DNA from: Escherichia coli | GTDB taxonomy: Bacteria; Pseudomonadota; Gammaproteobacteria; Enterobacterales; Enterobacteriaceae | Assembly (NCBI RefSeq): GCF_024298765.1 | Contig: NZ_CP101210.1 | DNA length: 64,000 nucleotides | Strand: one strand, 5' to 3' | Part shown: in pieces, positions 59,238 to 62,200 of the stretch | Numbering within the stretch: position 1 is the first letter of the stretch | Layout of the letters: every line of letters begins with the position of its first letter | Made by a program: the position numbers and the translations under genes | Notes under the pieces: generated by a model | Seen by the model: only the letters and a program-made list of their open reading frames with translations | The model's database searches: none | What the model was told of the DNA's origin: nothing

Positions 59238-62200
59238 TCAGTTAATCGCGAAATAACTGCTATTCACCAGCAAATCCAGCGGTTGGGCATCGGCAATCAC
59301 ATCACCATAAATCAGATCGACGCCGATGCCAGAAAGCGTATCCATCACTAAGGGTAAAACGACTGGCCCGGCGATGGTTTTCATCCCGAGTCGCTGAGCG
59401 TGCCCCTGAATAATCGTAATCAGCATCTCATCCATCAAATTACCCTGCACGTTGGCGCATAACTCACCATCAAGTAGCAGGTAATCTGCCATATTCGCTT
59501 TCAGCGAGTTGAAGATTTGCAGATCGCGGCCCACCTGGCTGAGCACTATCCGACATCCCGCCAGCCGCAGTTTTTGCACGCTTACTGCGTGATCTAAAAT
59601 CGCTTCAGCCGGAATAATCAGATGTAATAACCGTGGTGGTAGAGGGCTATTTTCCAGCTGCTCAAGCAGATCATTCACCAGCGTGGCGCTACTCAAACCG
59701 GCAACGGAAAGAGGGAGGGCGATGCTTATGCCTTTACTGGCAACCGCTTTTGCGGCCTGCTGGAAAAATTCGTGGAATACCCGTCGGTCAAGAGCATGGC
59801 TAAGTGCCGGATCGCTGAAGCTACGACGAAATTTTTGTTCATCAATAATCTCGCCTTCGCAACTCCAGAGCTTAAGTGAAATCAGCCACAAATTACGCGC
59901 TTCCGGGATCCGCGGCGAAGCGACACCGTGGGCGATCATCATCAACTGATTCTCTTTAATCATCCGCCACTGTTCATCAAGCGACATCGCCGCCCGTTCG
60001 CTATGTGCGGCAGCTTGCTGTGGTTCGTAAACCGTCACCCGGCCCCGTCCACCATTTTTGGAGGCATAACAGGCGATATCAGCCTGCGACATCACTTCTG
60101 CCGCCTGATGATTGTTGTCATCAATCAAGGTAATCCCGGCACTGGCACCTACCCGATGCACACGGCCTTCCCATATAAAGTGATAATCATTCACGGCACT
60201 GATAATGCGTGTAGCGATAAAACGCGCACTTTCGATATTACAGTCTGGCAACAGTAGACCAAATTCATCACCACCGAGTCGCGCCAGCACGTCGCTGGAG
60301 CGCAGCATACTCAGCATCAACGACGCCAGTTCGCGCAGTAAAGCGTCACCCGCCGCATGCCCGGCGCTGTCATTCACCGCTTTAAAGCGATCAAGATCGA
60401 TAAACACCAGGGCATGTCGCTGATGTGTACTGTTTACCGTTTGCAGCAGGATACGCAGTTGTTTCTCAAAACTGGCGCGGTTGGCGAGATGCGTCAGTGC
60501 ATCATGGGAGGCGCTGTAGCTCAGCTGGCGCAGCATTTTGCGTGATTCGGTAACGTCCTGAATCACCAGAACCGAACCAATATTGCTGCCGTCCAGAGTA
60601 CTTAACGGCGTAATACTGTAATGCACGTCGTAACTGCCGCCGCTCCGACAGTGCAACACCACATCTTGTTCGATCGCGGAACGTGAGGTGTCGGCACTGT
60701 AAATGTTCTCCATTAATGGTCCGTTGTCGCCAAAAGTAATATGCAACACCGTCAGGAGCGGAACACCTAACGCTTCTTCCTGCGTCCAGCCGCTCATCTT
60801 CTCCGCCACTGGATTCATAAAGGTAATTTTCATCGCCATATCAATACAGACCACGGCTTCACCGATGGAATCAAGCGTAATGTGCAGGCGCTCTTTTTCC
60901 TGAAACAATGCCTCGTTAAGCTGTTTAACCTCGGTCATATCCATATTAATGCCGAGCAGGCGTTCGACTTCGCCTTCTTTATTCAGTACCCGGTTGGCGA
61001 GGGCGCGGATATGGCGAATACCGTCTTTTACGGTAATGCGAAATTCCAGCTTAAAGGGCGAGCGTGATTGCAACGAATCACGAATCACTTTTTCGGCATG
61101 CTGGCGATCTTCCGGCAGCACGCACTCGTACCACACCTGCCAGTTCGGTTTGATATGCGGAGGAGTTTCATACAGCTCGAACATCCGCTTATCCCAGCTA
61201 AAAATATTCGGCTTCAGCTCCCACTCCCAGATGCCAATCCCGCCCGCTTCGTTAGCCAGCGTGATGCGCTCCATCAGTTGCTGATTCACCTGTTCGGTGC
61301 GTTTTAGCTCGTTAATGTCTTCAATCTGAGCGATAAAATAGAGCGGCGTGCCATCCGTGTGGCGCACCAGTGAGACGGCAAGCAACGCCCAGACAACATC
61401 GCCATTGCGGTTGTAGTAGCGTTTTTCCATTGAATAGGTGTTTATTTCACCGCTTATCAGCTTTTCAACCTGTTGGAGATCTTTATTGAGATCCTCCGGC
61501 CAGGTCAGTTGCTGAAAGGTGAGTCCGCGCAGCTCTTCCTGACTGTACCCGAGAAACTGGCAGAGCGCTTTGTTGGTTTGCAGCCATTGTCCCTCGGTGC
61601 CCACTAACGCCATACCGATAGCGGAATATTCCATGGCGTTCCGAAAACGGGTTTCGCTTTCGGAAATGTGTTTGCGTTCCGCACGAAAGGCATACATCAC
61701 CATGGTCATGATGTTGGCGGGCAGCAGGATCAGCAAAAACGGTAGCCACGGCATATGGCTCATCAGGTATGTACGCGGCGTAGCAAGCAGGGAGGGATCC
61801 GCGGCCATCATCAGCGACACCATCATCACCGTGGTAAGGAAGATCAAAAAGGCTTCCATTCGTGGCAGGCGCACGGCGCTCCACATCAACAGCACAATAA
61901 TGAAAGTAAAAGGCCACGGCAGATACAGCATCGAAAGCCAGCTTAACGTCAGTGTGATGGCTAACGTGAGCAGCGACTCAAAAAGCAACCGTGGGTTGCG
62001 ATGGCGCAGCAGATAGTGTGGTTTAAATAACAATCCCAGCGGCACCAGTGCCAGAGCGCCGATGGATTCTGACAGTACCCATATCAAAAATGCCCTGAGA
62101 GGATCGTCTCCGGGCGTCAGCAGGACAACCAGACCCCCCCCCCAACAGAGGCGGAACAATGGCGCTGCCGAGTGCCAGACGCAGCCAGTCAGCCAGATTT

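Follow-up and report, generated by a model that had tools for sequence, protein, structure and literature searches.

A derived guanine run of variable length and the probable slipped-strand inactivation of dgcE in Escherichia coli

Contingency genes carrying poly-G or poly-C tracts in Neisseria, Haemophilus, Campylobacter, Helicobacter and Bordetella, along with the 7C tract in glpK of Mycobacterium tuberculosis, are the closest precedents for the locus considered here (PMC1891110, PMC2831843, PMC6667613, PMC10334774). That locus is dgcE (yegE), found in a stretch of 64,000 nucleotides of Escherichia coli DNA (contig NZ_CP101210.1 of assembly GCF_024298765.1), hereafter the window, where its reading frame is broken within a run of ten G residues (G10). 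The likeness to contingency genes lies in a long G/C run early in the coding sequence, in variants of +/-1-2 nt that fall in or out of frame, and in the occurrence of several lengths among otherwise identical strains; the difference is that the run is not conserved in dgcE, its variation being documented here between genomes. E. coli is proficient in mismatch repair and, to our knowledge, is not known for tract-based switches. A full-text literature search returned papers on dgcE pseudogenes and frameshifts, none of them tying dgcE/yegE to a homopolymer or to phase variation, with the survey of Povolotsky & Hengge 2016 lying outside that search; the run belongs mechanistically with homopolymeric-tract frameshift loci and, within the literature searched, had not been described for dgcE. 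Taken alone, the window holds an ordinary frameshift pseudogene, and it is the pattern in the population that is the point of note.

In E. coli, production of the curli and cellulose matrix has DgcE as its top-level trigger, and dgcE ranks among the most often pseudogenised metabolic genes in a set of 2,377 E. coli genomes (PMC13322260). In an E. coli that persists in soil and is negative for curli, the single-base deletion 1456delC, a frameshift at codon 486 (H486fs), is accompanied by loss of CsgD and curli, which dgcE supplied in trans restores (Somorin et al. 2018, PMC6029578). That lesion and the one in the window affect the same gene by a single-base frameshift upstream of the GGDEF domain; the soil allele is not reported to lie in a long homopolymer and marks a single clone, whereas the window lesion falls at codon 141, in a recurrently mutating run. 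In Shigella flexneri 2457T, dgcE has an IS110-family insertion (IS, insertion sequence) and a premature stop (PMC11327459). This allele, that of O157:H7 Xuzhou21 and those with ISEc20 inserted in the gene (dgcE::ISEc20) are labelled pseudogenes by the Prokaryotic Genome Annotation Pipeline (PGAP) and, like the window allele, no longer encode an intact MASE1-PAS-GGDEF protein, in lineages that are pathogenic or associated with hosts; they differ in arising from an IS, or from a single insertion outside the run, and in not being readily reversible, while the Shigella allele retains some output of cyclic diguanylate (c-di-GMP). A further comparison is offered by genes in which polymerase slippage rescues a homopolymer frameshift, as in the poly(A) tracts of insect endosymbionts, Shigella mxiE and IS transposases. 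As in those genes, the frame of the window dgcE is shifted at a long homopolymer and remains intact downstream; theirs, however, are A/T runs with a conserved out-of-frame arrangement, whereas the dgcE run is G/C and polymorphic.

The original prediction, made from the letters of the window, was that a +1 frameshift in the G10 run splits dgcE in two, and the sequence, the open reading frames (ORFs) and the matches of the two halves to the family profile NF007298 all bear this out. The gene occupies the same order as in K-12, alkA-dgcE-udk, and lies on the minus strand, which reads ...GTT CCG CCT CTG TTG GGG GGG GGG TCT GGT... around the lesion, the ten Gs of CTG TTG GGG GGG GGG TCT corresponding to 62134-62143. 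The features of the broken gene are as follows.

62134..62143, minus strand: G10 homopolymer (C10 on the plus strand), a +1 length variant of the derived G9 run at dgcE codons 138-141, from the sequence
62023..62556, minus strand: 5' ORF of 177 aa, comprising DgcE residues 1-141 (first part of MASE1) and 36 out-of-frame residues, from the ORF list, NF007298 and PF05231
62023-62025, minus strand: premature stop codon of the 177-aa stub
59238..62132, minus strand: what is left of dgcE, read in the original frame (codons 142-1105 and the stop), from the open frame and NF007298
59238..62045, minus strand: 935-aa ORF starting at the GTG that is DgcE codon 171, as called by gene callers in identical contigs
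59238-62261, minus strand: mechanical, TTG-started ORF of 1007 aa, overlapping the 177-aa stub

The NCBIfam DgcE equivalog NF007298 aligns with the stub over profile positions 1-141 and with the downstream frame over 140-1111 (the latter at 1835 bits, cut-off 1135), and because one match ends at 141 and the other begins at 140, the two frames abut exactly at the run. PF05231 (MASE1) was matched on a product identical to the window's stub. The remainder encodes the second part of MASE1, three PAS domains, GGDEF and an EAL domain that is degenerate, with no further lesion, and its active-site motif is kept (...RLGGDEFGLL...; ...VLARLGGDEFGLLLPD...). Assignment to DgcE (YegE; NF007298 / PRK09776) is supported by orthology over the full profile and by the position between alkA and udk, while the single unbroken frame for MASE1-PAS3-GGDEF-EALdeg is interrupted after codon 141; relatives with the identical allele carry the PGAP label 'frameshifted'. 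As had been proposed, removal of one G in silico yields a DgcE of 1105 aa with a single stop at the normal position and no other lesion, with 1 aa (I464T) separating it from WP_000043794.1, an intact RefSeq protein, and 10 aa separating it from K-12 DgcE. A match of this corrected translation to reference DgcE proteins had also been anticipated: natural G9 alleles agree with it to within 1 aa, while K-12 has V141 and no G9 run. Of the proposed 1007-aa downstream fragment, the intact original frame stands; the ORF itself is a mechanical, TTG-started one that overlaps the stub and retains the second half of MASE1.

No site in the window is more prone to error on any platform than this run of ten Gs, and near-identical complete genomes disagree at exactly this position, as assembly noise would produce, so that the strain could in reality be G9 with an intact dgcE. 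We consider a sequencing or assembly error of this kind quite improbable. Two independent Logan short-read assemblies reproduce the window with 100% identity, G10 included, over 9,270 bp (SRR6065558) and 6,967 bp (SRR18827331), and in both the exact 935-aa downstream product with its rare T464 is on record. The SRR6065558 contig is identical to the window at 49458-53535 as well, outside a multicopy IS150, and lacks the window's IS5 insertion, and therefore represents a distinct isolate or sample. Across the 64 kb compared with K-12, the dgcE run is the only indel that breaks a window gene; the other coding indels are K-12's own pseudogene lesions in yehH and gatC, both genes being intact in the window, and the rest are intergenic or compensating. 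The exact 177-aa stub of the window is present on 90 contigs in a 15-billion-protein collection (135 index blocks covering NCBI, ENA and Logan), and multi-isolate series are consistently G10, among them Ec-042 (T0/T5/T20), four MRSN strains and four EC21Z strains. An indel created by sequencing would not be expected to recur in independent data of the same lineage, as this one does in SRR6065558 and SRR18827331. The sequencing-error option, which the original prediction had left standing beside real inactivation, is thus disfavoured, and the latter supported. The corrected 1105-aa protein, for its part, is on record in GCA_029485565.1 and SRR21970435, which show no mismatch to the window in 9,047 bp, their sole difference being G9 instead of G10; over 25 kb, the closest complete E. 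coli genome in RefSeq is 98.7% identical. By these comparisons the window's G10 is reproducible in independent data and appears to have arisen on a haplotype that also exists in intact form.

Length variation at the run extends well beyond this haplotype. Exact run lengths were counted in 5,426 complete RefSeq E. coli genomes as uninterrupted runs between identical 30-nt flanks. G8 was found in 5 and G11 in 9 of these genomes, and G12 had 0 exact matches; the G12 query places G9, G10 and G11 together at 118 or fewer, which sets the bounds for the in-frame G9 (at least 35; 35-49) and for G10 (at least 60; 60-74). Out-of-frame alleles thus number 74-88, as against 35-49 for G9. The band of matches at 99% identity or above also includes 33-37 partial alignments, which are the dgcE::ISEc20 genomes, and is not usable as an exact-match count. 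Every out-of-frame genome inspected bears the PGAP annotation 'dgcE, frameshifted'. Among individual cases, 2014C-3097 (G9, intact) and 2015C-3905 (G8, frameshifted) have a private flanking single-nucleotide polymorphism (SNP) in common, and 1EC213, with G8, also lacks the T that follows the run. Truncated products other than that of the window are widespread in the protein collection, including a second 177-aa G10 stub (556 contigs), a 145-aa G8 stub (202) and a 146-aa G11 stub (17), from sources that include NCBI drafts, ENA and Logan short-read assemblies.

Run length also varies on near-identical backgrounds. Of three Swiss isolates, N73 has G8, N196 has G9 and N169 has G10; 1-2 SNPs set them apart in 40 kb, and they have no indel but the run. 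The 1-kb haplotype to which they belong is G9 in 8 complete genomes and G10 in at least 52. Strain 12A of O111:H2, with G11, matches the NCTC contig UGEB01, with G10, throughout 7 kb except at the run. The window's own 1-kb haplotype occurs with G9 in 13 complete genomes and with G8 in three, with no other difference, as judged by bit scores against the scoring scheme. G8, G9, G10 and G11 all occur on DNA that is identical in every other respect; the site therefore changes often over evolutionary time, and from sequence comparison we regard the dgcE run as a mutation hot spot. The slipped-strand length variation envisaged in the original prediction is supported in this sense, at the level of the population. 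Two properties of phase-variable loci are evident here, a long mononucleotide run inside the coding sequence, close to its 5' end (codons 138-141 of 1105), and the presence of in- and out-of-frame lengths among near-identical genomes. A third, maintenance of the run throughout the species as a sign of selected mutability, is absent, most E. coli having an interrupted G5-6 TGTT.

The interrupted form is seen in K-12, O157:H7 Xuzhou21, O104:H4 and WP2-S18-ESBL-08. K-12 MG1655 reads TTG GGG GGT GTT CTG (LLGGVL) at the run position, with G6 only and V141, in the form GGGGGGTGTT; Xuzhou21 has the same sequence, and O104:H4 and WP2-S18-ESBL-08 have CTA/TTA GGG GGT GTT. A 69-mer of the K-12 type is matched exactly in about 1,400 of the 5,426 complete genomes, most others differing by one to three flank SNPs, and no uninterrupted run of 8 or more was found at the dgcE site among GTDB representatives, which comprise one genome per species. 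The in-frame long allele, G9, reads TTG GGG GGG GGT CTG (LLGGGL). On this distribution the long run is a derived allele, produced from the interrupted form by two T>G substitutions (GGGGGGTGTT to GGGGGGGGGT) that amount to V141G and one synonymous change, and present in roughly 5% of E. coli genomes. Among the G/C runs of the 64-kb window, the dgcE G10 alone reaches a length of 8 or more, the next longest being 7, and about 400 kb of related E. coli loci contain no other of that length; runs of 9 or more G are expected 0.34 times per dinucleotide-preserving shuffle of the window. Tandem Repeats Finder reported no repeat at the run, homopolymers being outside the scope of that tool.

These observations are best accommodated by a real and recent slipped-strand knockout at a hypermutable, derived run, a reading to which we assign a probability of about 0.72. 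Two T>G changes would have created an uninterrupted G9, the longest G/C homopolymer in the sequence examined, and slipped-strand mispairing during replication of this long run would then have led to a heritable +1 insertion, from G9 to G10. Translation of the G10 allele would leave the DgcE frame after Gly141 and stop 36 codons on; of MASE1, the resulting 177-aa stub would have the first helices only. The PAS-GGDEF-EAL part would not be made or, at best, would lack the membrane domain that activates it. Loss of one G by slippage (-1) would restore dgcE. Because the rest of the gene and the surrounding 9 kb are unchanged, the event in the window lineage must be recent. As to its consequence, the domain architecture of K-12 DgcE is MASE1-PAS3-GGDEF-EALdeg (PMC6510439), and an internal deletion of MASE1 in K-12 gives a null phenotype in macrocolonies, in CsgD and in csgB::lacZ expression, equal to that of a dgcE deletion, although the protein is still expressed; mutation of the GGDEF motif to GGAAF is likewise null (PMC6510439). 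By analogy, a G10 strain would probably lack DgcE signalling and produce less matrix under DgcE-dependent conditions, the predicted null consequence resting on K-12 genetics.

Several considerations weigh against this account. Corroboration of the window's G10 comes solely from other data sets with identical haplotypes, and some of the differences in length between complete genomes could be homopolymer error in long reads. The raw counts are inflated by clonal over-sampling, and they are counts of genomes rather than of independent events or of changes from G9 to G10 or the reverse. Finally, 'null' may be too strong a description, in that dgcE of S. flexneri, broken before its GGDEF domain, raised c-di-GMP when expressed (PMC11327459).

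The Shigella result bears also on whether the G10 allele might still yield a functional enzyme, through slippage of RNA polymerase or of the ribosome (+1) on GGG GGG GGG G, or by restart at GTG171 or later. Long homopolymers are known sites of both transcriptional and ribosomal slippage, and the downstream dgcE frame is fully intact. Moreover, dgcE, dgcQ and dgcN of Shigella, all broken before GGDEF, still raise c-di-GMP, with several protein species (PMC11327459). The 935-aa ORF from GTG171 is a possible restart product, and would be without the first MASE1 helices. On the other hand, no Shine-Dalgarno-like sequence is evident upstream of the candidate restarts among the in-frame start codons that follow the shift, and the K-12 protein without MASE1 is, as noted, expressed and yet null (PMC6510439). 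In addition, G8 and G11 need different slips, and hence no single recoding rule fits all of the alleles. A programmed site would be expected to preserve its out-of-frame arrangement, but most E. coli are in frame and non-slippery; in-frame forms (G9 and the K-12 type) dominate, and the out-of-frame lengths are -1, +1 and +2. By this measure of conservation the dgcE run does not behave as a programmed recoding site, and continued production of a functional enzyme from G10 seems improbable to us.

If the G10 allele is indeed a slipped-strand knockout, it may be asked whether the run serves as a switch or records decay of the gene. The occurrence of G8, G9 and G10 in near-identical backgrounds suggested reversible, selected phase variation. 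Slippage could then toggle DgcE between ON (G9) and OFF (G8, G10, G11), at rates sufficient to give mixed populations, whose balance would be shifted by selection within and outside the host. The lineages affected would include large multidrug-resistant clinical and companion-animal clones and O111 enteropathogenic or Shiga toxin-producing E. coli (EPEC/STEC), and insertion of ISEc20, for which the run would be a favoured landing site, would provide a second, irreversible OFF route. We regard such a contingency switch as a tentative proposition. It draws on the several lengths found on identical backgrounds, the G9 genomes inside a mostly G10 haplotype, the intact downstream frame, and the existence of both states on one 9-kb haplotype. 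Against it, most of the species lacks the run, so that mutability is not a conserved property of dgcE, and the gene has been lost by many unrelated routes (+A, IS, Mu-like prophage, ISEc20), as would be expected if selection on DgcE were relaxed or negative in host-associated lineages.

Another reading is that loss of function is fixed and selectively favoured, for example through less curli or cellulose in the host, and that G10 is a permanent pseudogene. The excess of out-of-frame alleles over G9, with 32 more genomes having an IS in the run, agrees with this, as do the near-uniform G10 of one large clone and the unrelated dgcE lesions in O157:H7, soil E. coli, Shigella and nine pathogenic strains cited in PMC11327459. 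The OFF excess may, however, reflect over-sampling of clinical clones, and the rest of the gene is undamaged; the G9 genomes within a predominantly G10 haplotype and the identical 9-kb haplotype in both states also argue against permanence, and we find fixed loss rather doubtful. Should the run indeed switch DgcE off, and possibly on, this would explain the frequent annotation of dgcE as a pseudogene and would help explain differences in biofilm from strain to strain and colony to colony within successful clinical clones. As a corollary, 'dgcE pseudogene' calls in lineages with the run would hinge on the length of one homopolymer, at which long-read assemblies may err.

Other lesions of dgcE were encountered in the course of these comparisons. 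A 1447-bp IS110-family element, ISEc20 (in PGAP, 'IS110 family RNA-guided transposase'), lies inside the dgcE G run in 32 complete E. coli genomes, for example at 4039-5485 of NZ_CM181232.1, with further examples in two other sequences examined. Its junctions, ...CTGTTGGGGGG followed by TGCCCC... at one end and ...GTAAC followed by GGGGGGTCTGG at the other, fit insertion into a G9 allele with GGG duplicated. The converse idea, that the G9 allele is the footprint of an excised IS, was set aside, the junctions fitting simple insertion into a G9 run. Two other ISEc20 copies are located after TGTGTGGGGGG and TTTGTGGGG, which suggests that the element has a TGTKGGGGGG-like target motif, matched by the dgcE run; TGTTGGGGGG may be a candidate pairing sequence for the target loop of the ISEc20 bridge RNA. 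In cattle STEC of serotype O156:H25, yegE was described as 'probably two genes' (PMC5359238). These strains were rejected as a further case of poly-G frameshift, 13E0780 and 13E0725 carrying the ISEc20 insertion. In O157:H7 Xuzhou21 (NC_017906.1, 2749062-2749430) the run is interrupted as in K-12, and an additional A some 40 nt downstream of it (GATCCTCATCAGG vs GATCCTCTCAGG) independently frameshifts dgcE (PGAP 'frameshifted'). In GCA_946056215.1 (CAMGIU010000008.1, from about 11920) the same G10 stub is accompanied by a Mu-like prophage, with Mu transposase, MuB, Gam and Kil, further down dgcE.

The region beside dgcE is itself of mixed similarity to K-12. The segment 51244-59182 (yegL-pphC-yegJ-yegI-yegD-alkA) is 96-97.6% identical, with neighbouring segments at 98.5-99.9%, and two sequences with an identical dgcE haplotype lack yegJ and are 2.4% different in pphC-yegL; recombination break-points immediately next to dgcE are thereby indicated. 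Identity to K-12 falls to 84% in a short segment at 345-560. Four lesions or insertions of K-12 are absent from the window (5816, 31770, 33699-33701 and 36040-36057): yehH lacks the extra C of K-12, gatC its 2-bp insertion and gatR its IS3E, and the cryptic prophage remnant PR-X (ogrK-yegZ) is missing. The window presumably carries the ancestral, intact forms of these K-12-altered sites. Beyond yegH, outside the window, the large G10 clone and E. coli F247 have a wzi-wza-wzb-wzc capsule locus and a truncated integrase rather than the K-12 arrangement.

Two insertion sequences lie within the same part of the window. An IS5-family insertion of 1195 bp at 53536-54730, between yegI and yegJ, is flanked by a TTAG duplication and contains a transposase ORF at 53604-54584 (NF033581); it must be very recent, because it is absent from the otherwise identical SRR6065558 contig. 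An IS3-family (IS150-like) element of 1443 bp occupies 49801-51243 in the sibA/ibsA toxin-antitoxin region, with ORFs at 49848-50369 and 50366-51217, and IS150 is found in the same region in E. coli F247 and in the SRR6065558 contig.

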